Assembly (NCBI GenBank): GCA_964416765.1
Contig: CAYQEU010000001.1
Coordinates: 1,675 to 65,674 of the forward strand
From: an uncultured Candidatus Saccharibacteria bacterium
GTDB lineage: Bacteria; Patescibacteriota; Doudnabacteria; UBA920
DNA: 64,000 bases
Direction: 5' to 3'
The position numbers and the translations under genes are program-made. Below are positions 1 to 51,563 of this stretch, in pieces (position 1 is the first letter of the stretch; the number at the start of each line of letters is the position of its first letter). Under the pieces are notes generated by a model that worked only from the letters and a program-made list of their open reading frames with translations, had not been told where the DNA came from and made no database searches.

Positions 1-3000
1 GAAGTACTAACATTGGTAGCAGTGGCACCGGAGATATCTTATTAGGTGGTGGCAGCGGCTCTACCGGATGTACCGTGGTTAACTCTTCTGGAGCACTGGC
101 ATGTTCTGCTAGCGGCGACTTTGGTAATTACTTATCGGTTGCACAATCCGGAGCAACCACTACGGCCGGAGTGTTGCGAGTAACCACTTCTACTTCAACT
201 GATTTTGCCCCGGGTATTAAAAACCAGTACACAGAAACATCCACAGGATCACTTACCGGTGTGTATGGCATGCAAAACTTCTTGTCCTCATCCGCCACTG
301 TTACTGGAGCGAGCGTAGGACAGAATTTGTACGGCTTCTATAACAGCGTTTCCAAGAGCGGAGCTGATACCGCCACTGGCACTTACAATATTTATGGTAA
401 CTATAATGCCGTTGATAACACAGGTCGTACCAACGTTGGTACTGTTAACACTTACGCTGGATACTTCAATGCCTTTGGTGACACCGCCGGCACTTCCCAG
501 GCCATTGGTCTGTATGCCACGGCCAGCGGCGCTGACAATAACTATGCCGCTCTCTTTGACCAGGGTAGCGTTGGTATTGGCACACTTACTCCACGGCGCA
601 AGCTGGACGTGCTTGATGCCTCCAACCCCCAGCTTCGTTTAACCTACACCGACAACTCTGTTTATACAGACCTGCAAACGACCTCTTCCGGAAACCTATA
701 TATTAATCCAACGGGTGGCGGAGTCGGTATTGGCATAAGCTCACCAGGAGCGGTACTTGCCGTTGAAGATGGCACTTCTTCCGACCAATTTCGTATTGGC
801 GACCAAAGCGGTGGTAACTATTACAAAATCGGGCGCAATACCAGCACGGGCTTCTTAGATTTTACAGGTACTCAAAGCGGCTTCCGGGGTTATCTATTTA
901 ACAACCCAGACAACAATTTTTATGTGACTAATGCCACAGGAAGCAATAGGATTAAATCATCCACCGGCACAGCGGCTGCAGTAGCAGGTATTGAATTAAA
1001 TAACTCCTCTCGTGGTTACTCTTGGTATATCGATAACCGCGGGTCAATAGATAGCCCAAATGACCGTTTCGGGATCTTTAATAACGCAGGCACTGAAGTC
1101 ATCACAGCCCTAAGCGGCGGGAATATCGGTATCGGTACCAATAATCCAGGCAAGAAGCTCAGTGTAATTAAGGCCGACAACGCCACAGACGAAATTGCCC
1201 AGTTCTACGCTAATAACCTCACTCAAGGTATCGGCATAACCTACGCAACTATAAGTGCTATTGGCTCTAACACAGACCAAGGTATAAATATTGTCCCTAA
1301 GGGCGCTTTTGGAGTCGGCGTAGGAACCACCACAGTGGCTACCAATAACATGTTCTCCGTTAATGGTTCAGCCACTATTGGTGCCGGGTCATATAACGTA
1401 GCTGCTCCAACCAGCGGTTTGTTGGTCTCCGGCGGTGTCGGTATCGGCACTAACGGTCCTGACCGCAAGTTGGACGTACTTGATGCCTCCAGCCCACAAC
1501 TGCGCTTAACCACGACCGATGGTACGGTTTATGGAGATTTCCAGAATACTGCTAATGCCAATGCCATTCTTACAGGTAACACTTTAGCCTCCTCTTCTGC
1601 CATTCAATACGGTCTCCAGGTAGTTCCAACAGTCAACCAAACTTCTACGGCTGGTTATACTGCCCTGGACGTTAACGTCACTGAAACTGGGGTAACCAAC
1701 GGGCCAAACTTATTGGCTGACTTCCGCGTGGGTAACAGTGAAAAGCTGTCGGTACGCAACGATGGTTCCTTGACCTTGCATGGTAACTCCAACATTATCA
1801 CTCCTTTTGGTGGCTTCGGCAGCTTCTCTAACTACCTTGTCCGCAGCGAAGACTTTACCACTACATGGTCAGTATCAAGCGTAACTGCTCCTACGGCAGA
1901 TACTCAGGTTGCCCCTGACGGTAGCACTACCGCAGAAAGCCTTGCTACGAGCGGCTCCGGCGGTTCTGTTACCCAAGATACCTCAACTGCCATTTCCAGT
2001 ACCACTTACACCTTTAGCGTTTGGGCCCGGTCAGCCAGCGGCACCCAAAACTTTGGTTTGAGAATCGACGGCACCTCCTCCGGGACTGGTGCAGAAAAGA
2101 CTTATACTGCCACAACAAGCTGGCAAAGGTTCTACGTTACCCAGGCGGTCGGCAGCTTTACCGGAAACGTTCGGGTAAAGATCTTCCCTGGCACCTCTTC
2201 GGGTACCGGCACCATTTATGCTTGGGGCGCTCAGTTAGACAACGCATCAGTTCCTTCCCAGTATGCTAAGACCACTACGGCCGCGATTAATAACCCAAGC
2301 AACAGGGGATTGCTGGTTAACACCAACCTTACCAATACTGTTTCCAGCGGCTTCCTTTACGGTGAACGCCACATTAGCACCATTAACTCCACTACCGCCG
2401 GCACTCACGTTGGCCAGTTCATCCGAACTATAGACAATACTTCACTGGATTCGGGCCAGGTCGTGCGTGCCCTTGAAGTTCAGGCGTTCTCCGGAAGCAA
2501 CGTCAACGGCACAAATACAGGTATTGCAACCTTTGGCTACACGTTTGGTATCCAGGCCACTACTACCGCCCAAGCGGCTTCCCAAGCCGCCCCGGCAGCC
2601 ATCTTCGCTGACCTTGATAACGGTACTGACTCTACTACTAAGGCCCGTGGTAATGCCATCCGCGCTTACACCAACGATGCCACTTCGGCCACCCTGGTCC
2701 AGTTCTACCAAGAAACCTCGGCCTACACAGGCACTGGTTTACAAATGGATTTCGGCAACAACTCCGGCTCCTTCAACGGCAATTACGCGGACTTCCTCTA
2801 CCAGGGATCCAGTAAGTTCCAGATTGCCTACAGCAGTTCCACCGGCAAGCTTACTCAAACCTACGGAGCCACTGGCAGCATCATTGACTACGCCAGCGCC
2901 ACTAACGGCAACACCTTTGTCGCCAAGATCCCGCAGAAGGCAACTAGTGGTACTTGTGCATCCGCTGCAGCTGAAGGGTTCATTTACCAGAATTCCGGAG

Positions 3001-4370
3001 GTACTCAGGTTGGACACATTTGTATTGATGGCCCGTCCTCCGGCACTCCAAACAAGCTCCGCTTCTACGCCGAACAGTTCAACGCCACCTCCACTGACGT
3101 TGCAGAAAACTATTCCGATGCCACTAATTCCCTACAGCCAGGCGACTTGGTAATGCTCGACGCTTCTACTAAATATGGCGTAACTAAGGCAAATATTGGC
3201 ACCGGAAACCCGGTAATCGGTGTGGTCTCCACCTCACCTGGTATTGTCCTGACCGGTATTAGCGAGTCTGACCACAGCAGCGAATTGGTCAATCCAAAAC
3301 CAATTGCTCTGTCCGGGCGTGTCCCAGTTAAGGTATCCAATGAGAACGGCGCCATTAAGACCGGTGACTTCCTGACTGCTTCCTCAACTCCGGGTGTTGC
3401 CATGAAGGCAACCAAAGCCGGCCCCGTTATTGGCCAAGCCCTGGCAGACTTCAACGGTACTACCGGCACCATTGTGGTGTTCATTAAGGCCACTAACTAC
3501 AACGGCGCTGATATTCAGAATGAAATGCCAGGCCTGACCTTCCGCTATGCTGACCCAGTCCAGGCTGCCAACACTTCCTACGATATCCTCGGCCACCTCA
3601 TGGCCCAGCTACCGAACCTCAACCCAAATAACCTGTCCCAGGTTCATACCGATGTGGTTGTCGCGCGGGCTGAAGTAATCACCCCGACTGTTACCACCCA
3701 CACGCTGCGTACCGATTTGTTGTCCGCCGCGACTGCCCAAGGGGGATTGTCGGTCGCGTCGACAACCGTGTTCAACGGCGGGTTGAAGGTGGACTCAATT
3801 GGCTCCATCGGAACGATGCTGTCCATCCAGAGCGATGTCGAATTCTTTGGTATCCCGTACTTCACCAGCGATACCGCCGGGTTCGCCCTCATTAAGAGTG
3901 GAGTTCAAAGTGTGGACGTGGAATTTACCCACCCCTATGTGGCCCAGCCGATCATCAACGCGACTATCAGTTTCGAACAGGACATCAACCCTGACCTGAT
4001 CAATGACCCGAATGCCCAAGAGTCACTGAAGAACGCTGCCATAACTGATACCCAGGCATTCCTGCAGGCGGGGATTAGCTACGCCATTACCAACAAGAGC
4101 GCGCGTGGGTTTACGATTGTCCTCAATAAGCCAGCCCCAAGTGACATTAAGTTCAGCTGGATTTCCTTAGCCGTTCGGAACGCCATTACCTTCACTTCCA
4201 AAGATGCGCCCCAGCAAAGCCAGGCTACTCCTCCGGCTGACGGCCAGGCAGGTGGCGACACTACTACTCCGCCGGCAGGGGATGGCAGCGTTAGCGGTTC
4301 AGACCAGGGAGCAGACAGCACCACACCGCCTACCTCATCTTCTGATAATGGCAATGACTCCTCATCATAA
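1..4370 (+). CDS. Giant secreted surface protein, 5'-truncated by the window edge (at least 1431 aa). It has repeated GxGIGT..P..KL.V and 'RKLDVLDAS.PQLRL' motifs of the tail-fibre-domain kind, and a C-terminal Pro/Thr/Ser/Asp-rich low-complexity tail.
   Basis: The frame is open from nt 3 with no stop before 4370. Motifs occur at least four times (GSVGIGTLTPRRKLDVLDASNPQLRLTYTD, GGVGIGISSPGAVLAVEDG, GNIGIGTNNPGKKLSV, GGVGIGTNGPDRKLDVLDASSPQLRLTTTD). Thr/Ser/Gly/Asn content is very high. All overlapping minus-strand and frame-shifted ORFs look like low-complexity artifacts. Confidence 0.8.
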   Translation, partial: STNIGSSGTGDILLGGGSGSTGCTVVNSSGALACSASGDFGNYLSVAQSGATTTAGVLRVTTSTSTDFAPGIKNQYTETSTGSLTGVYGMQNFLSSSATVTGASVGQNLYGFYNSVSKSGADTATGTYNIYGNYNAVDNTGRTNVGTVNTYAGYFNAFGDTAGTSQAIGLYATASGADNNYAALFDQGSVGIGTLTPRRKLDVLDASNPQLRLTYTDNSVYTDLQTTSSGNLYINPTGGGVGIGISSPGAVLAVEDGTSSDQFRIGDQSGGNYYKIGRNTSTGFLDFTGTQSGFRGYLFNNPDNNFYVTNATGSNRIKSSTGTAAAVAGIELNNSSRGYSWYIDNRGSIDSPNDRFGIFNNAGTEVITALSGGNIGIGTNNPGKKLSVIKADNATDEIAQFYANNLTQGIGITYATISAIGSNTDQGINIVPKGAFGVGVGTTTVATNNMFSVNGSATIGAGSYNVAAPTSGLLVSGGVGIGTNGPDRKLDVLDASSPQLRLTTTDGTVYGDFQNTANANAILTGNTLASSSAIQYGLQVVPTVNQTSTAGYTALDVNVTETGVTNGPNLLADFRVGNSEKLSVRNDGSLTLHGNSNIITPFGGFGSFSNYLVRSEDFTTTWSVSSVTAPTADTQVAPDGSTTAESLATSGSGGSVTQDTSTAISSTTYTFSVWARSASGTQNFGLRIDGTSSGTGAEKTYTATTSWQRFYVTQAVGSFTGNVRVKIFPGTSSGTGTIYAWGAQLDNASVPSQYAKTTTAAINNPSNRGLLVNTNLTNTVSSGFLYGERHISTINSTTAGTHVGQFIRTIDNTSLDSGQVVRALEVQAFSGSNVNGTNTGIATFGYTFGIQATTTAQAASQAAPAAIFADLDNGTDSTTKARGNAIRAYTNDATSATLVQFYQETSAYTGTGLQMDFGNNSGSFNGNYADFLYQGSSKFQIAYSSSTGKLTQTYGATGSIIDYASATNGNTFVAKIPQKATSGTCASAAAEGFIYQNSGGTQVGHICIDGPSSGTPNKLRFYAEQFNATSTDVAENYSDATNSLQPGDLVMLDASTKYGVTKANIGTGNPVIGVVSTSPGIVLTGISESDHSSELVNPKPIALSGRVPVKVSNENGAIKTGDFLTASSTPGVAMKATKAGPVIGQALADFNGTTGTIVVFIKATNYNGADIQNEMPGLTFRYADPVQAANTSYDILGHLMAQLPNLNPNNLSQVHTDVVVARAEVITPTVTTHTLRTDLLSAATAQGGLSVASTTVFNGGLKVDSIGSIGTMLSIQSDVEFFGIPYFTSDTAGFALIKSGVQSVDVEFTHPYVAQPIINATISFEQDINPDLINDPNAQESLKNAAITDTQAFLQAGISYAITNKSARGFTIVLNKPAPSDIKFSWISLAVRNAITFTSKDAPQQSQATPPADGQAGGDTTTPPAGDGSVSGSDQGADSTTPPTSSSDNGNDSSS

Positions 4371-4488: not shown

Positions 4489-7400
4489 ATGAATATCAGC
4501 ATAGGAAAAGTCAGGCCAGGCTTTGGTACCAGAAAAACCTTCACTTTAGTGGGCGTTTTTCTGTTTTGTGCTTTGCTGGTATTCAATGGTTTTTTCCCCT
4601 CCAGCGGTGGAATTAAAAAAGCTCATGCGGCCCCGGTAACGATCACATTTTACTCGGATGATTACTGGCAGGTTCCTGCCGGTGTGACTTCCGTAACTAT
4701 TGATGCATGGGGCGGCGGCGGCGGCGGTAATTCCATCGGCCAAGGCGGTTACGGCGGAGGCGGCGGCGGTTACGCGCATGGTACTGTTAGCGTTACCCCT
4801 GGAAATTACTATGACATTATAGTCGGCCAAGGAGGGGTGGCGGGAGAAAAAAATGGCGGCGCGGGCGGCCCCACATATTTTGGTGGTGGTGACGTGGGTG
4901 CTACTGGCGGCGATGGCGGCCAGAGTGGTATTGGACCCGGAGTGGGGGGCAATATTTTTGCCGGTGATTTTGGGTACTCAGGCGGCCAAGGCGGTTACGG
5001 CGACCAATTCTTTTCCTTGTTAGGCGGCGGCGGTGGCGGTGGTGCTGGATCTTCCGGCGCCGGCAGTACCGGTGACGATGGTATAAATGGAGGTGCTGGA
5101 GGCGCCGGCGGCCCGTCTGAAGGCGGCCAAGGCGGTCACGGCGGCGACAGCAGAAGTGATGGCGAGCCGGGCTACAGCATAGGCGGGGGCGGTGGCGGTA
5201 GCGGAGATGGCTCCTTCCCGGGAGATGGGGCAGCTGGTCAACTTTGGGTTACCTATATTCCTCCTTTAATTTGTACTTCAATCACAAGCGGCTCTGGCAA
5301 CTGGAATAGCGCCAGCACTTGGACCAATTGTGGCGGCGGCACACCCGGCTCTAATGACACCGCGGTTATTGAGGGCACCGCGCAAATCACGGTCACTGCC
5401 AGCACCACGGTAAATAACTTACAGTTTGGTGACAATTCGACACCCGCGACAAACGCGGTGCTTAAAGTTAATAGTGGCCAAACTTTAACAGTTTCCAACA
5501 CCACTACAGTTTTCAGTGCCTCTAACAATAATGTCCAAGCCACCATCCAGGATGGTACCGGTAGCGGGACGGTATCCGGTGTTTATTTGGATATAGGATC
5601 ACCCGTAATTCCTGGTACAGGATCCCACGAAACTAAATTGATATCTTCAATTTCCAATTTTTCTCTGGCGGGAAGCACAACCATGCATGGGTATTCCGGT
5701 GTTTCAAGAGACAACGACCCAACTCTGGAAATACCTTCTGGTACTATGACGACTACCAGCCTAACTACAACTTTATCTGCTTCGTGGGTGACTGCTACTA
5801 TTTCAATGAACACGGGTGCCCAGACGGGAACCCTTAAACTGACCAGTAACCCCGCATGGTCCATAAGCGGTACAGGTACCACCAATCTGAACTTAGCAGG
5901 GACGGGCAACACGGTGGAGTATTCGGGCACAAATGCTTCCATACTCAACACGACTTACAAGAACCTCAAAGTAAGCGGTGCCCTGGGTACGACGGCACAG
6001 ACCGCTACTGTTGCAGGAGCCTTCACTGTTACGGGCAGCGGTAGCATGTCTCCAAGCTCGGGAACCATGACGTTTAACAACGGGGCTTCAATAAATAATT
6101 CCGGTACCCTTAATTTCTATAATCTATCAACTTCGGTATTTTCTTCCGTTAGCTCGAGCGGTAGCTTCGGGGTAGCTTCAGGCGGCACGTTTACCATTGG
6201 GGGAGCGAGCACGTTTACCCCGGCAGCAGGCGATGTTATTACCGGTACCTCTGCTACTATTACCGGAAGCGGCACGGCCAAGGTCACCCGTACCGCGGCG
6301 ACCGCTGATTTTAATACTCAATACAATTTTGGCACTAAGACCCTGACTAACTTAACCGTGGACTACGCGGGCAGCGGGCAATCGTTGAGCAATCTCACAT
6401 ACGGTGGACTAAAAGTGAGCGGATCCATTACGGGCGCCACCGCTACTGCAACTGTGGGCACTAACTTTAATGTTACGGGCACCTTCACGCCCAGCGCCGG
6501 CACGATTACCATGAGCGGCACGAGTTCCATTACGAATTCAGGCACACTTACGTTCATTAACTTAATCATCAATACTTTGGCGTCAGTGACCGGCAACACT
6601 AGCTTTGGTGTTTCAGGCACCTTTACGGAAAATTCTGGGGCCAGTTTCGCCGCGGCTTCAGGCACGCAAACATTTAACAACGGTTCGAGCATAGTAAAAA
6701 ACAGCACCCAGCTGCTTCAGTTTAATAATCTAACGGTGGCGGCATCTGGCACCATAACCGCTAACGTGGACATGAGCATTAATAGCGCCGTAACCGTACT
6801 TTCTTCCGGCACGTGGAATGCCACGGCGGGCACGGTTACCATGATGGATGGGTCATCAATTTCAAACGCGGGAACCCTGTCCTTCCAAAACCTGACCATA
6901 GGGGCAGGGGGGACAACTAATGTCACCGCCAACGCTAGCTACACTGTTAAGGGGGGTTGGACAATAAGTTCGAACGCTACGCTATCCTCCAGCTCCGGTA
7001 CAGTAACCTTAACCGCTTCTGGAACGCCTTTTGTCATGAGTGGCTCATTTTCCCCGTCAGGAACTAATACGGTTAAGTACGCGTCCAGCACGGGCGCTAC
7101 AGTGACCAGCAACATAAGTTACCAAAATCTCGACATTTCTCCCAGCAGCGGAACTCCGACTTTTTCGGTTGGCTTCTCCAATCTTAGCGTGGGGGGTGAT
7201 CTTACTCTAACAGGAACAGTCGCGACAACCTTCAATTTGAATAATATCGCATCTTACCTGGATGTTAACGGAAACGTGAGCATCAACTCTGGGAATACCT
7301 TGGTGGCTCCGCCGAGCTCCGCGATTTTCTATATTGGCGGGAATTATACCAATTCGGGGACATTGAACAACAATGTTGGAACCATTCAGTTTGACGCCGG

Positions 7401-10400
7401 TACTACCGGTAAAACCATAACTACCAATAACCAGTTTTTCAACAATTTAGTTTTCAATAACGCCTCGGGCGGTTGGACTTATACTCCAACCCTGTACATG
7501 TCCGGGACTTTGACTGTTACCGCTGGCACACTGTCCGGTACCGGTAACGTGGAGACCGATGGGGGCAACACCACGGGGAATGGAACAATCAACATAACTG
7601 GCGGAACCTTTTCGCAGTATGCCGGGGGCAGCTTTGGTGGCAATACCAACTGGACCTTTAATGACATCCAGTTCGGGGATGATATTTCCGAAATGCATGC
7701 CACCGGAACCGGAACCATAACAGCCCGCTCTATTAGCTCGCTTTATGAGTGGCACGCCGGCAGCAAGACTTGGATTATTACGGGTACCGGCACTCCGCTT
7801 ACCAACAACGGTACGTTTTTTGGTGAGAATAGCACATTCCAGTTTACAGGCAGCACTGTTACGGTACCGGTGTTCGCATATAATAACCTAACCTTGGGGG
7901 GGAGCGGGACTTACACCATGCCGGCCTCAACCCTTACGCTCACTGGAAACCTGACCGTGACCAACGGGGCGACGGTGACAAAGGGAGCAGGAACTGTAGT
8001 GTTCGGGGGATCCACGCCTCAGACCATAACTGACAACAGTGGTACCAAACAGGACTTAGGGGCTCTTCAAGTCTCCAACACTACGCAGCCGTGGTGCAAC
8101 ATTTCTTCCACAGTATGTAATTCTTCCTGGCTGAACCGACGCAAGATTACTTTTAATAACAGCGCTTCTTCCGCGAACCTTACCAACTTCCCGGTTTTGG
8201 TTCAGCTGACTTCCGCCAACATCGACTACAACAAGACCAAAGCCAACGGCGCGGACCTTCGTTTCGTTGATGCTGATGGCACTACAGCCTTGAGTTATCA
8301 GATTGAAACCTGGAATACATCGGGAACATCCAACATATGGGTGAGGGTACCTCAGGTTAATAACACCACGACCGACTATATCTACATGTACTATAACAAC
8401 ACTGGGGCGGTAGATAGCCAGGCGGCCACCAGTGTGTGGGACTCAAACTTCAAGGGAGTGTGGCATCTCCCGGATGGTGGTACTCTTTCCACTGCGGATT
8501 CCACGAGCAACGCTAATAACGGGACTAATCAGGGAAGTACCATTGCCGCTGCAGGCAAGATTGGTGGGGGAGCGAACTTCATCAATAGCGGCAGCGACCT
8601 CGCGATTTCCAATATCTCCGTTAGCGGGGTTGCTTATACCATCAGCACCTGGTTTAATACTCCTTTTGGTAATGCCGGCAGCTACACTACCTTAACCCGT
8701 GGCGCCGCTGGTGACCACCAGGTCTTAATAGACCCGAGTAATATTCTGGGGGTATTTGATTCCAGCACCGGTTTCTATAGCTCAGGGTTTAATGTCACGT
8801 CTCTTTCCAGCGGCTGGCATCACTTAACCGCGTCAGCTACCGGCAGTACTACAACTTTCTATATCGATGGGGTAAGTGTTGGTTCTTCCTTATTTAAATC
8901 CAATACCAACATTAGTTACTTGGGTAACTGTGGCGTGTGTTCTGGCCAACGGTGGGGTTTGGCTGACGAAATGCGCGTTTCCACCGGCATTGCCCGCGAT
9001 GCTAACTGGGCCAAGGCGGACTACCTTTCCGAAAGCAACCAGATGAATACTTTTGGAAGTGAAGAATCCTCCACTGCGGTCGGGGTTGCATTGGGTTCTT
9101 CCATTAAAGCTACATCGGTAACAGTGGATGCTACTCGAGTTCTCAGCGCCAACGGCTCTAATACCCTAACTCTGGTAGGAAACGGCGCATCGGTGTTCGT
9201 GGTAAATGGCACGTTTGTCCCTTCTACCGGCACGGTTGATTTTAGCTCAGCAAGCACAACAGGAACTACTGTACCGGGCACGACTTTTTATAACCTCACC
9301 TTAAACAAAGCTTCCAATAACTTTACCTCCGGCGGTTCCATGACCGTAGGCGGTACGTTGACCATTAGTGCCGGCACCTTTACCGCACCTTCAGGCACTC
9401 TGACATTGAACGGGGACTTAGTTAATAGTGGCACCTTTACTCACAACAGCGGCACGGTAGTATTCGCCCCGACCAATGCCTCACTAAGTTCCACAATTTC
9501 AGGTAGTTCAAACATCACATTTAACAATGTCAGTGATACAACTCCCGGTTCCAGCATAATTTTCAAAAATGGGAGTACGTTCATTTTCTCCGGCACCCTA
9601 ACCGCCACGGGCACGGCGCAAAACGCGGTTTGGTTGAAGAGCGCTTCCCCAGGATCACAATGGACCGTTACTTTTAGCTCGACCCCTAGCCTTACAAACG
9701 TATCCGTGCAAGACGGTGCTTGTAATGGCGGGTTAACTTTGGCGCAAAACCCTTCCCTGCATAATGAAGGACGCAATGGTTCCTGCTGGGGCTTTATAAT
9801 CTACACTGGCGGCGGCGGTGCTTCTGACGGTGGTTCTGGCAACACCGGCGGCGAATCCGGCGGCGGCGGCGGAAGCGGCGGCGGTACAACCATTTCATTT
9901 ACTTCAAGCGGCTCTTGGACCGCGCCTGAGGGCGTAACTTCTGTTATTGTGGAAGCCTGGGGCGGCGGGGCCGGTGCCGGCAGGGGTACTACCATAGGTG
10001 GTTCTGGCGGCGGCGGCGGAGCGTATTCTAAGAAAAATTCTATCAGTGTAACCGCAGGTACTACATACACCGTAACTGTTGGCACTGGCGGAGCAGGGTC
10101 CACGGGGGGCAATGCCCAGGCGGGCGGTGACTCCTGGTTCTCTACTTCCGGTACTATACTGGCTAAGGGAGGCACGGCTGGAGCAGATAATGGCGGAGCT
10201 GTTGGAACCGGGGGCGCGGCGGGAAGCGGTATTGGTGATGTTAAATTCTCTGGAGCCAACGGAGGGACGGGTTCCAGTATCATAGGCGGAGGCGGTGGTG
10301 GAGGAGGGGGAGCTGGAACCGGCACTAATGGTAATCCAGGGGACGATGGTGTTTCTGGCGGCGGCGGCGGCAAGGGCGGCGCACTAAATGGCGGCGCTGG

Positions 10401-11244
10401 CGGTGATGGTCAATTCGGTAGCACGGGAGGTGCTGGATCAGTCCGCGCCGGCGGCGGCGGTGGTGGACAAGGCGCGGGCAGTAACGGCGGCGCAGGAGCC
10501 CGTGGTGAGATTCGGATAACCTACACAGTCAGTGGCGGCTCGGGCGGAAGCTCAACGAGTGGAAATACAACTACATTTACTTCAACTGGCTCATGGACTG
10601 CGCCAGCAGGCGTAACCTCGGTTACCGTTGAAGCCTGGGGCGCGGGCGGTTCTTCAGCCAGTGGTTCCTCGGGCGGTGCCGGACGGGGCGGTGGCGGAGG
10701 AGGAGCATATTCGTCCGCTACTATTACCGTTACTCCTGGTAACCAGTATACGGTAACGGTTGGTACTGGCGGTGCTGGACGGTCATGCTGTAGTGTTTTG
10801 GGACAAGCTGGGGGAGATTCCTGGTTCGGAACTACCGGCACATTGTTGGCAAAAGGTGGCTCCGGCGGAGACTTTTCCGGTACTGGCGCCTCAGGCGGCG
10901 CTGCGGCAGCCGGTGTAGGAACAATTAAGTTCTCTGGCGGTGCCGGCGGAAACAGCGCTGACAACACAGCGTCCTTTGGTGGCGGTGGCGGTGGCGGAGC
11001 CGGTACAACCGCCAACGGCGGTAACGGCGGCAATTCTTCCGGTGTAAATACCGTAGGAGCTGCGGGAACAGGCGGCTCCCTTAACGGCGGTAATGGCGGA
11101 ATTGGCGGAACCGGGGCCGGTTCAGTAAGAGGCGGCGGCGGCGGAGGGGCAAATGGCGCAACCGACTCTGTTGCTGGCGGTCGTGGTGAAGTTAGGATTA
11201 CCATCAATGCCACCCAAGGCGGCGGCGGTGGGGGATCCCCATAA
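4489..11244 (+). CDS. Giant secreted/surface protein (2251 aa). It has an N-terminal signal/anchor, three copies of an extremely glycine-rich domain, many PATR-like Ser/Thr/Gly beta-strand repeats, and a central DUF2341-like plus LamG/concanavalin-like module.
   Basis: N-terminal hydrophobic segment RKTFTLVGVFLFCALLVF. Gly-rich domain consensus 'W.APAGVTSV.VEAWGGGG...GGGGGAYS...ITVTPG..YTVTVGTGG' occurs at about 4650-5260, 9886-10512 and 10567-11217. The DUF2341-like signature LRFVDADGTTALSYQIETWNTSGTSNIWVRVPQV...IYMYYNN is followed by a lectin-like beta-sandwich region. There are dozens of SGT/TGT-rich roughly 20-aa beta-solenoid repeats. Confidence 0.85.
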   Translation: MNISIGKVRPGFGTRKTFTLVGVFLFCALLVFNGFFPSSGGIKKAHAAPVTITFYSDDYWQVPAGVTSVTIDAWGGGGGGNSIGQGGYGGGGGGYAHGTVSVTPGNYYDIIVGQGGVAGEKNGGAGGPTYFGGGDVGATGGDGGQSGIGPGVGGNIFAGDFGYSGGQGGYGDQFFSLLGGGGGGGAGSSGAGSTGDDGINGGAGGAGGPSEGGQGGHGGDSRSDGEPGYSIGGGGGGSGDGSFPGDGAAGQLWVTYIPPLICTSITSGSGNWNSASTWTNCGGGTPGSNDTAVIEGTAQITVTASTTVNNLQFGDNSTPATNAVLKVNSGQTLTVSNTTTVFSASNNNVQATIQDGTGSGTVSGVYLDIGSPVIPGTGSHETKLISSISNFSLAGSTTMHGYSGVSRDNDPTLEIPSGTMTTTSLTTTLSASWVTATISMNTGAQTGTLKLTSNPAWSISGTGTTNLNLAGTGNTVEYSGTNASILNTTYKNLKVSGALGTTAQTATVAGAFTVTGSGSMSPSSGTMTFNNGASINNSGTLNFYNLSTSVFSSVSSSGSFGVASGGTFTIGGASTFTPAAGDVITGTSATITGSGTAKVTRTAATADFNTQYNFGTKTLTNLTVDYAGSGQSLSNLTYGGLKVSGSITGATATATVGTNFNVTGTFTPSAGTITMSGTSSITNSGTLTFINLIINTLASVTGNTSFGVSGTFTENSGASFAAASGTQTFNNGSSIVKNSTQLLQFNNLTVAASGTITANVDMSINSAVTVLSSGTWNATAGTVTMMDGSSISNAGTLSFQNLTIGAGGTTNVTANASYTVKGGWTISSNATLSSSSGTVTLTASGTPFVMSGSFSPSGTNTVKYASSTGATVTSNISYQNLDISPSSGTPTFSVGFSNLSVGGDLTLTGTVATTFNLNNIASYLDVNGNVSINSGNTLVAPPSSAIFYIGGNYTNSGTLNNNVGTIQFDAGTTGKTITTNNQFFNNLVFNNASGGWTYTPTLYMSGTLTVTAGTLSGTGNVETDGGNTTGNGTINITGGTFSQYAGGSFGGNTNWTFNDIQFGDDISEMHATGTGTITARSISSLYEWHAGSKTWIITGTGTPLTNNGTFFGENSTFQFTGSTVTVPVFAYNNLTLGGSGTYTMPASTLTLTGNLTVTNGATVTKGAGTVVFGGSTPQTITDNSGTKQDLGALQVSNTTQPWCNISSTVCNSSWLNRRKITFNNSASSANLTNFPVLVQLTSANIDYNKTKANGADLRFVDADGTTALSYQIETWNTSGTSNIWVRVPQVNNTTTDYIYMYYNNTGAVDSQAATSVWDSNFKGVWHLPDGGTLSTADSTSNANNGTNQGSTIAAAGKIGGGANFINSGSDLAISNISVSGVAYTISTWFNTPFGNAGSYTTLTRGAAGDHQVLIDPSNILGVFDSSTGFYSSGFNVTSLSSGWHHLTASATGSTTTFYIDGVSVGSSLFKSNTNISYLGNCGVCSGQRWGLADEMRVSTGIARDANWAKADYLSESNQMNTFGSEESSTAVGVALGSSIKATSVTVDATRVLSANGSNTLTLVGNGASVFVVNGTFVPSTGTVDFSSASTTGTTVPGTTFYNLTLNKASNNFTSGGSMTVGGTLTISAGTFTAPSGTLTLNGDLVNSGTFTHNSGTVVFAPTNASLSSTISGSSNITFNNVSDTTPGSSIIFKNGSTFIFSGTLTATGTAQNAVWLKSASPGSQWTVTFSSTPSLTNVSVQDGACNGGLTLAQNPSLHNEGRNGSCWGFIIYTGGGGASDGGSGNTGGESGGGGGSGGGTTISFTSSGSWTAPEGVTSVIVEAWGGGAGAGRGTTIGGSGGGGGAYSKKNSISVTAGTTYTVTVGTGGAGSTGGNAQAGGDSWFSTSGTILAKGGTAGADNGGAVGTGGAAGSGIGDVKFSGANGGTGSSIIGGGGGGGGGAGTGTNGNPGDDGVSGGGGGKGGALNGGAGGDGQFGSTGGAGSVRAGGGGGGQGAGSNGGAGARGEIRITYTVSGGSGGSSTSGNTTTFTSTGSWTAPAGVTSVTVEAWGAGGSSASGSSGGAGRGGGGGGAYSSATITVTPGNQYTVTVGTGGAGRSCCSVLGQAGGDSWFGTTGTLLAKGGSGGDFSGTGASGGAAAAGVGTIKFSGGAGGNSADNTASFGGGGGGGAGTTANGGNGGNSSGVNTVGAAGTGGSLNGGNGGIGGTGAGSVRGGGGGGANGATDSVAGGRGEVRITINATQGGGGGGSP
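9886..11217 (+). repeat. Intragenic tandem duplication (two copies of about 630 nt, at 9886-10512 and 10567-11217) encoding the glycine-rich domain. A third, more diverged copy lies at about 4650-5260.
   Basis: DNA- and protein-level similarity is visible, e.g. TSSGSWTAPEGVTSVIVEAWGGGAG versus TSTGSWTAPAGVTSVTVEAWGAGGS, and both copies end ...RGE(I/V)RIT. Confidence 0.8.
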
Positions 11245-11260
11245 CCTGTATAATGAAAAT

Positions 11261-11803
11261 ATGCTAGACGTAAAGCACAACGTAAACAATTCCAATAATA
11301 TACCCAGTTCACCCAAGCTCAGTCACGGGCTGAAGGTGAGAACGGTACGTCCAAACCCCACTACCCCAAAGTGGGTTTGGATTGTATTAGGAGCACTTGC
11401 TCTAGCGCTCGTAATATTAGGTATCTTATTCTGGCGGTCTCAGCATCAAGTAAATGAGTTACGGGACAGTTTGGACAGCAAAGTAAACGCTACAAAGATT
11501 GCTGAAGAAAACAAGGCTTTATTGGATAGGGTAGGGGCAGTCATTATCCTGCCCGACGATGAAACCCCAACCATCGCGACGGTAAGCGATTTAGATAAGC
11601 TTAAAGGACAGCCGTTTTTCGCTAAAGCGGAGCTTGGCGATAAGGTTTTAATATACGCCAAAGCCAAAAAAGCCATTTTATACCGACCTTCCACCAACAA
11701 AATAGTGGAATTGGCGCCTTTAACCGATAGCGGCGATCCAGGCACAATTTCCAACTCCAACGCAAGCTCTAACTTGGCCCCCGCAAACCAGGCCAGCCAA
11801 TAA
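11261..11803 (+). CDS. Hypothetical membrane-anchored protein (about 180 aa, single N-terminal TM).
   Basis: ATG at 11261 is the first in-frame Met after the giant gene stop; the ORF-track start at 11153 overlaps the giant gene. TM helix WVWIVLGALALALVILGILFW. Confidence 0.55.
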   Translation: MLDVKHNVNNSNNIPSSPKLSHGLKVRTVRPNPTTPKWVWIVLGALALALVILGILFWRSQHQVNELRDSLDSKVNATKIAEENKALLDRVGAVIILPDDETPTIATVSDLDKLKGQPFFAKAELGDKVLIYAKAKKAILYRPSTNKIVELAPLTDSGDPGTISNSNASSNLAPANQASQ

Positions 11804-11804
11804 T

Positions 11805-12986
11805 ATGCTAGCCAAACAGCCCTGGACACATCACCACGCGCACCGATTGTTCCATATTTCACTGGGGCTTTGCTTCGCGTTTATACTGGTCACAATTCTC
11901 ATGGGGCTCATGGTCGTGTGGCTCGGCCACGCGGATCCGCCGCCTGTTAGCCACGACGTATCGATTACCGCTACCGTTGCCGGTATAACTCCTGGACCCA
12001 TTGATAACGGGGGAGGCCCAGCTCCGGTACCGCCAAATCAAAACCCTACCATTACGATTGTGGCCGAGCCACAAGGGGTCATACCGCAGACCGGGGGAGT
12101 GTATGTTTTTGTGGACCGCATCCCGGCTTTTTCCGGGCATACTTCGGTTCCCGGCGGATTGATATTTATTTCGATTGCCGGACCACAGGTGCTTAACAGC
12201 AGTGCTATCGCTGATGGCCAGGGAAATTGGTATTGGCAGTCGCCGGCCAAGCTGGATTTGGGAAGCTACGCCATAACTGCCACGGTTTACAATCGCAATG
12301 ATTTTTCCAAGAGCGGCCACGTCACGGCGAATTTTGCCGTGGAAACCAATTTGCAAACAAACCAGCCGAATAACGGCAACCAAGGAACCCCAGGCAATAA
12401 TGGCCAGCCGGGCAAACCTGGCACCGGCCGTCCCGGCACTGGGGGAATCACCCTTCCTCCGGCACCAGGGACCTCGCGGCTGTTCGGTGTATTTTTTAAA
12501 GTTTTGCCCGAATATGAGCGGGTGCTGGCGGGGAACAAGGTTGTAGGTCAGCTCACGTTGGTTAATAAACTGAGCAATCAGGAAACGAACCAGGAAATCA
12601 GTTACAAAATCAGCGGGCCTGACGGCAAGGTGGTCATGGAATCCCAGGACAATATCACTTACAGCAAGGTCGCCAACTTCCTAAAAACTTTTTATACCGC
12701 CCCGGCAACGGCCCCAGGACGATACACTATAGTGGTTACGACATCATACAACGGTATTATTTCCACAGCGTCCGATACTTTCAATTTAGAGCAAGTATTC
12801 CCGGCAGCCCCGACCCAAAGGGAAATTAACGGTCCGGTTATTTTGTGGGGAGGCCTGGCAGGACTGCTCATGCTGTTCCTGTTCCTAGTCCTGGTGGCCT
12901 ATTACCAGGTACGACTGGTGAGCCGGCACATTAGGGAACACAACGAAAAATACCATAAAGAAGATGAAAATACACCGCCCCAATAG
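11805..12986 (+). CDS. Hypothetical membrane protein (393 aa) with N- and C-terminal TM segments and a short collagen-like Gly-X-Y stretch.
   Basis: Start is 1 nt after the upstream stop. TM segments ISLGLCFAFILVTILMGLMVVWL and VILWGGLAGLLMLFLFLVLVAYY. GNQGTPGNNGQPGKPGTGRPGTGG at about 12375-12450. Confidence 0.55.
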   Translation: MLAKQPWTHHHAHRLFHISLGLCFAFILVTILMGLMVVWLGHADPPPVSHDVSITATVAGITPGPIDNGGGPAPVPPNQNPTITIVAEPQGVIPQTGGVYVFVDRIPAFSGHTSVPGGLIFISIAGPQVLNSSAIADGQGNWYWQSPAKLDLGSYAITATVYNRNDFSKSGHVTANFAVETNLQTNQPNNGNQGTPGNNGQPGKPGTGRPGTGGITLPPAPGTSRLFGVFFKVLPEYERVLAGNKVVGQLTLVNKLSNQETNQEISYKISGPDGKVVMESQDNITYSKVANFLKTFYTAPATAPGRYTIVVTTSYNGIISTASDTFNLEQVFPAAPTQREINGPVILWGGLAGLLMLFLFLVLVAYYQVRLVSRHIREHNEKYHKEDENTPPQ

Positions 12987-16413: not shown

Positions 16414-16920
16414 TTGAACAGACCAAGTAAATCACAAATTGTTGGGGCTATCGCCATAGCGACTGGCTTGGCGCTCGCGGGAACCGGGGTAATCCACGCG
16501 GCCAACACTAGCACAGCGCAAACCAGCAACCCGATGAGCGGCTTAGTAAACGCCATCGCCCAGAAGTTTAATCTTAACGCCGGTGACGTGCAACAAGTTT
16601 TTGACCAACAGCGCGCCCAAATGGACGCCCAACACCAACAAGACTTTGAAGCCCGCGTTGCCCAAGGCGTGAAAGATGGAAAGATAACGCAAGACCAAGC
16701 TGACCAAATTATCGCCAAGGCTAAGGAGCTACAAGCGTCCCGCCAAAGCGAACAAGCCAGCTCAGCGAAGCAAACCGAAGCGGAACGCGACGCCGCCAGG
16801 AAGGCTCAAATGGACTCGTTAAAGCAATGGGCGACCCAAAATAACATACCAAAAGAATTTATGTTATTCGGAGGGATGGGTCACGGCGGACCGGGACATC
16901 ATGCCAAACCTAACAACTAA
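16414..16920 (+). CDS. Secreted Gln/Ala-rich hypothetical protein (168 aa), possibly a periplasmic stress or chaperone-like protein.
   Basis: TTG start preceded by AAAGGAGAAA at 8-nt spacing. Signal peptide IVGAIAIATGLALAGTGVIHA, then Q/A/D-rich helical repeats. It sits immediately downstream of the two-component pair. Confidence 0.6.
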   Translation: MNRPSKSQIVGAIAIATGLALAGTGVIHAANTSTAQTSNPMSGLVNAIAQKFNLNAGDVQQVFDQQRAQMDAQHQQDFEARVAQGVKDGKITQDQADQIIAKAKELQASRQSEQASSAKQTEAERDAARKAQMDSLKQWATQNNIPKEFMLFGGMGHGGPGHHAKPNN

Positions 16921-18313: not shown

Positions 18314-18958
18314 TTACTTTTCCACCACAATCATGGCGGAATCCCGGATTTTTGCGTTTAGGTGAATGCCGGAGGAATAGTCCTGCATGGCCCGTTCAAA
18401 TATGCTCTCGCTCGCGCGCCGATAGGCACCAGTCATGGGGTCATGGAAGATTATTTCGCCATTGTCATGCCCCACGACCACCACTGTGTGGCGGGTGGTG
18501 AAGCTGTTGTACAGCCTTGTGCTGAGCACACGGGGGTTTAAGGGGGTAATGACCAGGCTTCCATTATCCAGCTGCGCCTTGATGTCCTGAACGGTGACAT
18601 TGTGCACTACTCTTAACCCATGGTATCCATAATACTGCACCATTAAATTTGCCGTATCCTGGGCCGAGGTATCCTGGTAAAATCCGTGAAAGAATTTTTC
18701 GTAATCAGACATGCCCACTATTTCATCTCGCGCTTGTTCTTTTGACATTGGGTTCCCACTTTCCCACATTACCGCCATGAGAATGCTTGCTTCTTCGCAG
18801 CCGTCGCTTTGTCGCGGATCACTCCATTGGCCCAGAGGCGCCTGGCTGGTGTAAGGAACGGCCAGAGTTGCCGCGAGCGATGGATGCGCAAAAACAAATA
18901 TTCCGGCCAACGCCAGAAATACTCCCACTCCTTGTTTTAGTGTGTTTGTTTTAATCAT
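18314..18958 (-). CDS. Secreted peptidase_C39-like (papain-fold Cys/His) domain protein.
   Basis: Signal peptide. The candidate catalytic Cys sits in SDGCEEASILMA and the His in HTVVVVGHD, in the order and spacing typical of C39-like domains. Confidence 0.55.
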   Translation of the reverse strand: MIKTNTLKQGVGVFLALAGIFVFAHPSLAATLAVPYTSQAPLGQWSDPRQSDGCEEASILMAVMWESGNPMSKEQARDEIVGMSDYEKFFHGFYQDTSAQDTANLMVQYYGYHGLRVVHNVTVQDIKAQLDNGSLVITPLNPRVLSTRLYNSFTTRHTVVVVGHDNGEIIFHDPMTGAYRRASESIFERAMQDYSSGIHLNAKIRDSAMIVVEK

Positions 18959-19000: not shown

Positions 19001-19810
19001 TTATTTAATCCAGATCTTCAGGGCGGTTAATACGTGGAGTATATTGTCCCAAATCCCGAAAACCCTTACTTTAGTTCCCACAGTTACATCAGAAGTAGTG
19101 GCAGTGCCGCCATTTTGGCTGACTACCTGGGTGTTAGAGTTGGTTGCCACAGTGGCACTAGCGCCATTCTTTGCCTGGACCGTCAGGTCAGAACCGGCAA
19201 CTGCGGTGACCACACCTTTGTCAGATGCAAATGCCTTGTTTACCGGCATATCGTATACGAAGTTGGCAGTTAAAGTGGATCCAGACAATGTTCCGTTTAC
19301 AGTAACTTTGTCGCCTACCTGGATGTTTGTGTTGGTAATGGCAGTGTTGGGCACGCTTATTATAGTGGCGCCCGAATCAACAACGGTTAGGGTTCCATTA
19401 TGCTTGGTCGTGAAGGTAAAACCGGTGCTTGAGGTACCAGTAACAGTTCCGGTGTAGAACAAAGTGAACATATTGCCAAAACCGAACCCATGGTCTCCAC
19501 GATGGGAATCACCGTCGTGGTCGCCATCTTTGTTATTGTCACGGTTTGTATTCTTATTGTTATCTTGTTTAGGGTCGGTCTTGGAGTTGTCCCGCTCCCC
19601 AAAAACATGGACACCATATTGGCTGTAAGTGCTTGAATTTGCAGATACATTGCCGCGATCGGTGTTAGCTTTCGCGTTTACGTCAGTAGAGGCTTTAACC
19701 TGGAAAGAGTGCCCGGAGGTAAGTCCGTGGGCCGCCGCAACTCCTGGTACCATAACAGCCACAATACCCAGGGCCGCCACCAACATAGAAAGTTTTTGGA
19801 TAAGTTTCAT
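19001..19810 (-). CDS. Secreted hypothetical protein with an Asp/Asn/Lys-rich linker and a C-terminal Thr/Val-rich beta-strand repeat domain, possibly DUF5666-like.
   Basis: Signal peptide MKLIQKLSMLVAALGIVAVMVPGVAAA. Repeated G.V..V.G...TV... segments. Confidence 0.55.
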   Translation of the reverse strand: MKLIQKLSMLVAALGIVAVMVPGVAAAHGLTSGHSFQVKASTDVNAKANTDRGNVSANSSTYSQYGVHVFGERDNSKTDPKQDNNKNTNRDNNKDGDHDGDSHRGDHGFGFGNMFTLFYTGTVTGTSSTGFTFTTKHNGTLTVVDSGATIISVPNTAITNTNIQVGDKVTVNGTLSGSTLTANFVYDMPVNKAFASDKGVVTAVAGSDLTVQAKNGASATVATNSNTQVVSQNGGTATTSDVTVGTKVRVFGIWDNILHVLTALKIWIK

Positions 19811-49742: not shown

Positions 49743-51563
49743 CTAACCGGCCAGGTGCTTCACTATTAATTCGGCTTTGTGCGGTCCGGTAACGGCGGCA
49801 ATGTCTTCCACGTTTGCCCGGCGGATTTGCGCGACAGTACCGAATTTTTGCTTGAGGAGTTTTTTGGTTTTGGGGCCGATTCCCGGAATTGTATCCAGCG
49901 CGGACTTGGTAGCAGCCTTGCTCCTAAGGGACCGGTGGAAAGTTATGCCGAACCGGTGCGCTTCGTCGCGTAATCGCTGAAGGAGCTGCAGTACCGGGCT
50001 GGAATGGTCCAGAATAATTGGAGTGCTGTTGTGCGGCAGGAAAATTTCCTCAATTCGTTTGGCCAAACCAATCACCGGAATGTTTAAGCTCTTTTCCTCC
50101 AACACTTCCACGGCTACGCTCAGTTGGCCTTTGCCACCGTCTATTACCAACAGGTCGGGGAGTGGCCAGGCGTCTTTGGGGTTTTCTGGGTTCACCCGGG
50201 ACAACCGCCTGCTAAGCATTTCCCGCATCATGGTAAAGTCGTCCGGGGTTTGCTTGGAGGTAATTTTAAACTTGCGGTATTCGTTTTTGGCTGCCTGTCC
50301 GTCTTTTGCCACCACCATACTGCCAACCGGATTGGTACCTTGGATGTTGCTGATGTCGTAACCCTCAATGCGCTTCGGTAATGTGGGCAAATTTAAAATA
50401 TCCTTGAGTTGTTCCAGGGTTTCCCTAACAGCGTCCAGGTTGGTGGCCTGGGTACGTTTCCATTTTGCTAAATATTCTTCAGCGTTAACCATACCTAGGG
50501 TAATGAGCTTCAGTTTTTGCCCGCGGGTAGGCGTGCACAGTTTGATTTTCCTGCCCGAACGCTGGCGGGTAACCATGCCCACTAAGTTTCCCGTTGGCAA
50601 ATCAACCTGAGTGTAAATTTCTTTTGGCAGGGAACTGGCCGTGGAGTAGTAGTCCTCGGCGAATTGCTGGAGAATTAAACTGGCGCGTTCGTTTTCCGGT
50701 AGGTGCAAAATATTTTCATAGATAAAATTTTCCTTATCGATGAGTTTGCCCTCGCGCACCTTAAACAGGTTAACGCAGGCCGCGAGGCCGTCCACGTATA
50801 GGGAGACAAAGTCCCAGGAGACTTTTTGGGGGAACATGGTGACCTGTCGTTCATCCAGGACTTCGATGGCCTGGAGTTGGTCACGCAACCTTCCGGCCAA
50901 TTCAAATTTGCGCCCGCGGGCTGCTTGCTTCATGGAACTCTTCAGTTCTCGTTTGATGGTGGAGGTCTGGCCCGACAGGAACAAAATTATCCGTTCCAGT
51001 TGTTTCTTATATTCCTCCATGGTTATAGAGCCGATGCAAATACCAGGGCAGCGGTGCAAATAGTAGTAGAAGCATGGGCGCTTCCCGATTTCTTTGTTGG
51101 CGCAGTAGGGGAAGATGCGTCTGACAAAATCCAGGGTTTGGCGGATTTTTTTAGTCGAAGAATAAGGACCAAAATATTTTGAGGTTTTGTCGCCTTCTAT
51201 TTTACGCGCGTAACCAATGGATGGAATCTCGGTGGAGTAATCAATTTTTATGAAAGCATAGTTTTTGTCGTCCCGAAGCATGATGTTATATTCGGGCATG
51301 TACTGTTTGATGAGCGTGTTTTCCAAAAACAGCGCTTCGAGTTCGGAGCTGACCACGACAAAATCCAGATCAACCGCGTCAGCCATAAGGAAGGGGATTT
51401 GCTCCCGGTTGTCATGCCCAAAATATTGCATGACACGGTTCCGCAGATCCTTGGCTTTGCCAACGTAAATAACCTCGCCGTCTTTATTCAGGTACTTGTA
51501 GACGCCGGGTTGGTGGGGAATATCTTTGAGCTTGTTTTTCAAGGTCTTCATGAGCTCAGTCAT
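49743..51563 (-). CDS. uvrC: Excinuclease ABC subunit C.
   Basis: N-terminal GIY-YIG (PGVYKYLNKDGEVIYVGKAKDLRNRV), UvrBC-interaction and RNase H-like domains, and C-terminal (HhH)2 IPGIGPKTKKLL. Confidence 0.9.
   Translation of the reverse strand: MTELMKTLKNKLKDIPHQPGVYKYLNKDGEVIYVGKAKDLRNRVMQYFGHDNREQIPFLMADAVDLDFVVVSSELEALFLENTLIKQYMPEYNIMLRDDKNYAFIKIDYSTEIPSIGYARKIEGDKTSKYFGPYSSTKKIRQTLDFVRRIFPYCANKEIGKRPCFYYYLHRCPGICIGSITMEEYKKQLERIILFLSGQTSTIKRELKSSMKQAARGRKFELAGRLRDQLQAIEVLDERQVTMFPQKVSWDFVSLYVDGLAACVNLFKVREGKLIDKENFIYENILHLPENERASLILQQFAEDYYSTASSLPKEIYTQVDLPTGNLVGMVTRQRSGRKIKLCTPTRGQKLKLITLGMVNAEEYLAKWKRTQATNLDAVRETLEQLKDILNLPTLPKRIEGYDISNIQGTNPVGSMVVAKDGQAAKNEYRKFKITSKQTPDDFTMMREMLSRRLSRVNPENPKDAWPLPDLLVIDGGKGQLSVAVEVLEEKSLNIPVIGLAKRIEEIFLPHNSTPIILDHSSPVLQLLQRLRDEAHRFGITFHRSLRSKAATKSALDTIPGIGPKTKKLLKQKFGTVAQIRRANVEDIAAVTGPHKAELIVKHLAG

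Follow-up and report, generated by a model that had tools for sequence, protein, structure and literature searches.

Three Gly_rich_2 modules in a giant, putatively exported protein of a Saccharibacteria-like bacterium

Glycine-rich modules that combine a small beta-sandwich with a lattice of glycine motifs have been described most fully in the tail fibers of bacteriophages. The fiber protein gp24 of cyanophage Pam3 consists of a TNF-like domain and a glycine-rich domain, in which 12 glycine-rich motifs form a lattice of four layers held by main-chain hydrogen bonds at a spacing of ~5 Å, and its variable distal tip has been proposed to bind the receptor (PMC9608196). The polyglycine-rich or brush domains of mycobacteriophages and other siphoviruses are candidate antireceptor (receptor-binding) domains, and the glycine-rich 'brush fingers' of the mycobacteriophage Bxb1 tail tip (9D93 Qa, Qb) are presumed to touch the host envelope (PMC13243795). 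On the cellular side, a Gly_rich_2 domain is found N-terminally in RemZ, a large protein that is secreted to the cell surface and is homologous to RemA, a gliding adhesin of Flavobacterium (PMC10994853). Here we analyze a stretch of 64,000 nucleotides (nt) from an uncultured Candidatus Saccharibacteria bacterium (positions 1,675 to 65,674 of contig CAYQEU010000001.1, assembly GCA_964416765.1; hereafter the window), which contains the gene for a giant protein of 2,251 amino acids (aa) with three copies of such a module.

The modules of the giant protein belong to the Pfam family PF21722 (Gly_rich_2), which is distinct in Pfam from PF12810, and their closest solved relatives are phage fiber proteins, not receptor kinases. 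This result provides a confident annotation for a 'hypothetical' protein and corrects the family from that of ALK/LTK, named in a first-pass annotation of the same DNA, to the phage-fiber-related Gly_rich_2. With Pam3 gp24 (7YPX, 7YFW), the giant protein shares, in the predicted fold of its modules, the succession of a beta-sandwich and a glycine-motif lattice; however, gp24 is a trimeric virion protein of 289 aa with a baseplate-docking N-terminal helical bundle and a dedicated chaperone, gp25, whereas here the domain occurs three times in a putatively exported cellular protein, with neither a helical bundle nor a chaperone gene nearby. Likewise, the Bxb1 domains sit in a phage tail tip whereas the giant protein is cellular, and RemZ combines a single copy with a C-terminal sorting domain of the type IX secretion system (T9SS), in contrast to the three copies found here. 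Compared with the rest of the Gly_rich_2 family, nothing defining differs and nothing is unexpected: the giant protein is one more multi-copy member, and its modules are ordinary representatives rather than a new kind of domain. By analogy with the described systems, we consider it fairly probable that the giant protein is an exported adhesin in which the three modules, along with a DUF2341/concanavalin A-like lectin module, bind surface ligands.

Three copies of the Gly_rich_2 module

The three modules (~217-229 aa, n = 3) align end to end, with conservation that extends to non-glycine positions, and a profile scan of all 418 six-frame open reading frames (ORFs) in the window recovered these three copies and no others. 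The glycine content is 38.2% in copy 1, 38.7% in copy 2 and 35.4% in copy 3, compared with 13.3% in the middle of the protein. Pairwise identity at the amino acid level is 60.0% between copies 2 and 3, 48.8% between copies 1 and 2, and 47.6% between copies 1 and 3, with z-scores of 19.5, 17.2 and 14.0, respectively, relative to composition-preserving shuffles; 66 of the 150 matches between copies 2 and 3 involve residues other than glycine. Hence the presence of three glycine-rich copies of about 200 aa in one giant protein, as claimed in the first-pass annotation, is real by alignment, by shuffling (z 14-19.5) and by profile scan. The range given there, 4650-11217, falls within a single ORF. 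The motifs quoted there are essentially right, apart from small slips: copy 2 reads WTAPEGVTSVIVEAWGGGAG, with PEG in place of PAG, and the corresponding block of copy 1 reads VSVTPGNYYDIIVGQGG rather than ITVTPGNYY.

In an hmmscan search, each copy scored singly lies above the gathering score of PF21722 (24.3 bits), with 39.5-50.3 bits and nearly the whole of the 226-position model covered (Table 1), and the whole protein scores 75.6 bits in 3 stretches. The non-glycine signature of the family (W..P.GV..V.VE.WG; Y.V.VG.GG; GGDS.F; AKGG; ITY), whose conservation was computed over 50 family sequences, is present in copies 2 and 3, whereas copy 1 departs from it, with GGPTYF for GGDS.F and with AKGG missing. 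In the 50-member alignment, 49 columns of glycine are conserved, as are a few positions with aromatic or aliphatic residues, while the columns between them vary. All metagenome homologues that were found are annotated as PF21722. The first-pass annotation had pointed instead to PF12810 (now ALK_LTK_GRD; gathering score 24.5 bits) and had suggested HMMER as the check; however, neither the whole protein nor any copy matches this model even at E <= 10, whereas human ALK, used as the positive control, scores 53.2 bits against PF12810 in the same library and has no match to PF21722. The human ALK ligand-binding query was itself checked against PDB chains, residues 1-205 being identical to 7nwz_F and the C-terminal stretch following 7mzw_A. 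None of the NCBIfam models matches the giant protein. Literature searches found no paper mentioning PF21722 or Gly_rich_2 and nothing joining ALK and polyglycine; for Saccharibacteria combined with glycine-rich proteins, only an unrelated host protein was returned.

As for the history of the copies, copies 2 and 3 are the product of a tandem duplication, but an old one, as indicated by the weak similarity that persists between them at the DNA level. Codon-aligned, they are 61.3% identical in nucleotide sequence overall, third codon positions agree in 40.5% of the identical residues, which is near saturation, and Tandem Repeats Finder reported nothing in the gene; one 99-nt stretch, which recurs 678 nt further on, retains 74% identity. 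Thus, the C-terminal duplication noted in the first-pass annotation is genuine, but the accompanying statement that the pair is 'still similar at DNA level' is borne out only to a small degree and was an overstatement. Copy 1 is the most divergent, a strand segment ('LAKGG') that copies 2 and 3 share being missing from it, whereas copy 3 has a GGGGGGSP tail and a small insertion with a CC dipeptide. This insertion, 'RSCCSVLG', which copies 1 and 2 do not have, places two adjacent cysteines at 10786..10791 (aa 2100-2101); the giant protein has 11 cysteines in total.

The triplication is not unusual because giant relatives with multiple copies are common, and the domain is already catalogued and extremely widespread. 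A HMMER search with the family profile against 1.84 billion cluster representatives (50% identity) returned 37,313 sequences at E <= 1e-3, of which 13,680 reach E <= 1e-10, and most of the highest-ranking matches are large multi-copy proteins, which have 2-10 stretches and lengths of up to ~5,400 aa. As an alignment of relatives shows, tandem Gly_rich_2 pairs with a short linker recur widely. Four multi-copy relatives scanned against Pfam contain fn3, PKD, cadherin-like and Big domains, which are adhesin-type architectures, and two of the four also carry T9SS sorting domains. The glycine-lattice module of phage tail tips is accordingly very common, and often multi-copy, in giant surface proteins of cells. 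One relative (P0143; 2,034 aa) is 55% identical over 678 aa to the DUF2341/lectin region and C-terminal stalk of the giant protein (aa ~1116-1773) and carries two Gly_rich_2 copies, at positions other than those in the giant protein; this combination of a shared stalk and lectin region with relocated copies suggests that glycine-rich modules have been shuffled among related giant proteins.

Predicted fold and relatives among phage fibers, RemZ and ALK/LTK

The AlphaFold2 model of copy 2, built from a 50-sequence alignment, has a mean predicted local distance difference test score (pLDDT) of 96.6, with no residue below 70, and a predicted template modeling score (pTM) of 0.92. Beta strands at residues 3-95 and 210-215 form a beta-sandwich. 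Residues ~124-209, about 90 in all, are assigned neither helix nor strand by DSSP and have a block mean pLDDT of at least 93, and on these two grounds the region looks like an ordered lattice of extended glycine segments. In the tandem model of copies 2 and 3, both copies fold, whereas the eight-residue linker is of low confidence and the pTM is 0.62, so that the pair would be predicted to resemble two beads joined by a flexible string. The models depict the Gly_rich_2 copies as independently folded units that are ordered and compact.

These models bear directly on the reading that the glycine tracts are a disordered low-complexity spacer, of the PE_PGRS or glycine-rich cell-wall type, with a triplication that merely follows from composition. 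A glycine content of 35-39%, with long GGxGG runs, is what such a spacer would display, and BLAST-type tools largely mask sequence of this kind. Nevertheless, we find this reading hardly credible: the copy alignments lie 14-19.5 standard deviations above shuffles and include many non-glycine identities, conserved residues W, P, Y, F, D, and V recur across the 50 family members, the match to the curated Pfam model extends from one end of it to the other, and the predicted fold has no poorly modeled residue. The disorder reading is rejected on the fold prediction and the shuffle controls. Accordingly, the first-pass annotation was right to see a catalogued, folded glycine-rich family rather than disordered low complexity, and to relate it to the polyglycine class; pure disorder, which it had named as the outcome that would speak against its assignment, is not what AlphaFold2 predicts.

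In a Foldseek search of the PDB, the best match of copy 2 is the Pam3 tail fiber (7ypx_A; E = 2.5e-8, TMq 0.60, 26% identity over 241 columns), with the second Pam3 entry, 7yfw, matched as well, followed by the Bxb1 tail tip (9d93 Qa and Qb; E = 2e-7 and 6e-7, TMq 0.57-0.59, identity 22-24%). Copy 2 as a single sequence found no match in the PDB at E <= 10. The family profile searched against PDB sequences detected RemZ of Flavobacterium johnsoniae as the best sequence match (E = 8.4e-10, residues 2-209) and also the Pam3 fiber (E = 1.6e-4). The PHROG family phrog_863 ('tail fiber assembly') was matched with E = 8.5e-15. A search of predicted viral structures gave 276 matches at E <= 1e-3; many of these are named tail fiber, and cyanophage proteins and 'collagen-like' proteins of giant viruses are included.

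With respect to RemZ, the available structures resolve only its C-terminal domain. The T9SS is a system of Bacteroidota (PMC10994853), and unlike RemZ, the giant protein comes from a Saccharibacteria-like source outside Bacteroidota. The Pfam scan of the giant protein found no T9SS sorting domain (Por_Secre_tail or CHU_C), whereas two of its relatives (P0122 and P0123) carry such domains. A further comparison is offered by the adhesin gp38 of Salmonella phage S16 (6F45), in which glycine-rich motifs with hypervariable loops form the receptor-binding tip. This protein is structurally related to gp24 according to the Pam3 authors (PMC9608196) and has been classed as a polyproline II (PPII)-helix bundle (PMC13243192); however, its lattice has three layers and 10 motifs and is carried by a beta-helix instead of a TNF-like sandwich, and 6F45 is absent from the Foldseek PDB matches of copy 2. 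Such polyglycine-II or PPII-helix bundles, which also occur in ALK and the snow-flea antifreeze protein, are hydrogen-bonded lattices of glycine-rich segments with PPII-type backbone angles.

The TG region of ALK/LTK (PF12810; 7NX1, 7LRZ, 7N00) also consists of a beta-sandwich and a glycine lattice, as is predicted for Gly_rich_2, but the two are separate Pfam families without cross-matches in either direction. Long insertions and an EGF-like module further set ALK apart, and its ligands are the cytokines ALKAL1 and ALKAL2. Foldseek lists LTK/ALK TG/GRD structures (7nx1, 7nx0, 7lrz, 7n00, and 7ls0_B) at ranks 5-13, with probabilities of 0.82-0.97 and E-values of 1e-3 to 7e-3. Non-vertebrate members of PF12810 show the motif series 'GIQxWTVPxTGxYxIEAWGAxGG ... 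ILVGQxG ... GGGGGTFV ... IAGGGGG', to which the Gly_rich_2 series 'WTAPAGVTSVTVEAWGAGG ... TVTVGTGG ... GGDSWF ... LAKGG' runs parallel. When only the N-terminal halves were compared with hhalign, the expected register was obtained (P = 4.4e-4, 33% probability). The N-terminal register, the parallel motifs and the Foldseek probabilities together suggest a remote common origin of PF21722 and PF12810, not membership of one in the other.

The stronger proposition, that the domains are ALK/LTK-type members of PF12810 and constitute a polyglycine-helix scaffold for a specific protein ligand, can draw on the same three lines of evidence (the structures listed by Foldseek, the hhalign register, and the shared series W-x-V-P-x-x-G-x-Y-x-I-E-A-W-G-A-x-G-G, I-L-V-G-Q-x-G, G-G-G-G-T-F-V, I-A-G-G-G-G). 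Yet it appears improbable: PF12810 is not matched at E <= 10, in contrast to three passing scores for PF21722, and ALK matches only PF12810; the TM-scores of copy 2 against ALK/LTK are ~0.3, with root-mean-square deviations around 14 Å; BLASTP detects no significant similarity between copy 2 and ALK; whole-length hhalign comparisons with ALK alone and with 23 aligned PF12810 sequences, gathered by searching a database with ALK, reach only 3.5-4.7% probability and in the wrong register; and neither ALK nor LTK chains are among the PDB matches of the family profile at E <= 10. Membership in PF12810 is rejected, given the absence of a match at E <= 10 with a positive ALK control, and a putative remote homology is retained. 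Of the resemblance to ALK/LTK noted in the first-pass annotation, a detectable likeness of predicted fold survives, without family membership and at a remote level of similarity. The non-vertebrate, metagenomic members of PF12810 considered here were P0326, P0328, P0337, P0338, P0339, P0343, P0344, P0346, and P0350, and P0337 has in addition an N_methyl (PF07963) domain.

Architecture and proposed role of the giant protein

The layout of the giant protein and of the genes next to it is given in Table 1. Gene calls on three metagenome contigs (29-180 kilobases) include the identical 2,251-aa protein; the 180-kilobase contig is SRR11845634_7178, and the source samples are SRR11845619, SRR11845633, and SRR11845634. 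Judging from the translation, its N-terminus would act either as a Sec signal peptide that is cleaved off or as a signal anchor. The long region between copy 1 and the DUF2341 domain (T 17%, S 14%, N 10%, charged residues ~5%) is presumed to be a beta-rich stalk. The glycine- and serine-rich linker in front of copy 2 has no significant match to the family profile.

Table 1. Coordinates of the giant gene, its parts and the adjoining genes (positions in the window)
Feature	Position (aa)	Strand	Basis and remarks
Gene for the 2,251-aa giant, putatively exported protein	4489..11244	+	ORF list and translation; stop codon included
N-terminal export signal (putative)	4489..4629	+	Read from the translation: basic n-region, 20-residue hydrophobic stretch (FTLVGVFLFCALLVFNGFF), AHA|AP
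Gly_rich_2 copy 1	4630..5280 (aa 48-264)	+	PF21722 49.4 bits, profile 7-225/226; alignment; 38.2% Gly
T/S/N/G-rich repetitive region	5281..8208 (aa 265-1240)	+	Motif scan and composition; recurring '...G(T/S)(L/I)xFxNL(T/S)...'
DUF2341 domain	8245..8439 (aa 1253-1317)	+	PF10102 54.6-58.8 bits, cut-off 23.4
Laminin_G_3 / concanavalin A-like lectin domain	8590..8928 (aa ~1368-1480)	+	PF13385 32.9 bits, cut-off 27.6, E = 8.3e-8
Second T/S-rich repetitive segment	8929..9738 (aa ~1481-1750)	+	Motif scan; FxNL motif again
Gly/Ser-rich linker preceding copy 2	9739..9879 (aa 1751-1797)	+	Translation
Gly_rich_2 copy 2	9880..10530 (aa 1798-2014)	+	PF21722 50.3 bits, profile 7-225/226; AlphaFold2 pLDDT 96.6; Foldseek 7ypx_A E = 2.5e-8
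Short flexible linker between copies 2 and 3	10531..10554	+	pLDDT <50 at residues 228-235 of the tandem model
Gly_rich_2 copy 3	10555..11241 (aa 2023-2251)	+	PF21722 39.5 bits, profile 3-224/226; tandem model pLDDT ~84-97
Upstream giant ORF	75..4370, runs off the window start	+	1,431 aa fall in the window; on contig L001 the ORF has 1,551 aa
Downstream gene	11261..11803	+	180-aa protein, single transmembrane segment
Downstream gene	11805..12986	+	393 aa; hydrophobic segments at both ends, weak Big_13 Ig-like match, proline/glycine-rich spacer

Under the proposed mechanism, the giant protein would be a Sec-exported surface protein, an adhesin or a fiber, in which the export signal is followed in order by copy 1, a T/S/N-rich stalk of putative beta type, the DUF2341 and lectin domains, a second stalk, and copies 2 and 3. 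Each Gly_rich_2 unit would start as a small TNF-like beta-sandwich from which glycine strands extend and pack against each other by main-chain hydrogen bonds, yielding a lattice of extended polyglycine-type segments, as in Pam3 gp24 and the 'brush' domains of mycobacteriophages. The conserved glycines would provide a rigid core, whereas the variable non-glycine residues at the loop ends might bind a ligand on the surface of another cell. Three such modules and a lectin domain, displayed on a long stalk, could then act as a multivalent attachment device, possibly binding the bacterial host of the epibiont.

Several observations weigh against this picture. The presumed stalk region aa 265-1240 has no Pfam match (E <= 1) and neither has the second T/S-rich segment (aa ~1481-1750) in the Pfam scan; moreover, no C-terminal anchoring signal, be it a sortase motif, a T9SS domain or a terminal transmembrane segment, was found in the giant protein. 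The bundle of the trimer and the chaperone that go with a Pam3-type phage fiber are both absent here. The polyglycine-II geometry suggested for copy 2 is deduced from high model confidence in the absence of helix or strand and from the matched structures, and the function assigned to the giant protein rests on analogy.

Attachment to the host is a poorly understood process in Saccharibacteria-like epibionts, for which the giant protein is a reasonable candidate. A more specific proposal is that such an epibiont attaches to the envelope of its host by means of phage-type receptor-binding modules, in which a TNF-like domain is combined with a polyglycine 'brush' and by which the tails of cyanophages and mycobacteriophages recognize cells; this we regard as speculative and rather doubtful. 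If it is true, the variable loop tips would set the host range, as they do in phages. Exchange of Gly_rich_2 modules with phages may also have taken place.

Genomic context and the prophage alternative

The scanned genes of the window that surround the giant gene are cellular, including an ABC permease, a two-component system, UvrA, UvrC, DnaK, RNase J, glutamate dehydrogenase, and two tRNAs. UvrC (49743..51563, minus strand) is up to 74% identical to proteins of metagenome-assembled genomes of uncultured Candidatus Saccharibacteria, and the G+C content of the window is ~50%; the UvrC identity places the source as a Saccharibacteria-like member of the Patescibacteria. The upstream giant ORF is matched at aa 585-737 by the NCBIfam model GTA_spike_fiber (NF048003; phage head-spike fiber) with 74 bits, and its Pfam scan gave no match.

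This context bears on the possibility that the giant gene is a tail-fiber gene of a phage or prophage, encoding a receptor-binding protein of a virion rather than a cellular adhesin. The best structural and PHROG matches of the modules are indeed fiber and tail-tip proteins of phages, and the head-spike fiber domain of the upstream ORF points in the same direction. Nonetheless, a prophage origin is very improbable: no capsid, terminase, portal, tail-tube, baseplate or integrase gene was found among the ORFs scanned (the flanking and the larger ones), the neighboring genes are cellular, the putative N-terminal export signal would be unexpected in a virion protein, and similar multi-copy proteins elsewhere have T9SS signals and adhesin domains. 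Furthermore, the two downstream genes, which encode small membrane proteins, have no match to tail-fiber assembly proteins, and no such chaperone adjoins the giant gene. The prophage reading is therefore rejected on the context of the genes scanned, and an exported cellular adhesin remains our preferred reading.

Some further features of the surrounding genes deserve mention. The upstream giant ORF contains a repeated 'GIGT..P..KLDVLDAS.PQLRLT' motif and an S/T/G/D-rich tail, and forms with the gene studied here a pair of giant surface-type proteins. Further downstream, the ORFs at 16414..16920 (plus strand), 18314..18958 (minus) and 19001..19810 (minus) show, respectively, a weak similarity to GH-E HNH/EndoVII-like nucleases (E = 3e-3, below the cut-off), Peptidase_C39_2, and DUF5666, and may be secretion- or toxin-related genes. 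Finally, the ORF at 33815..36382 (plus strand) encodes a protein of 855 aa with DUF5122 beta-propeller repeats and a PQQ_2/BamB-like match, which is probably extracellular.

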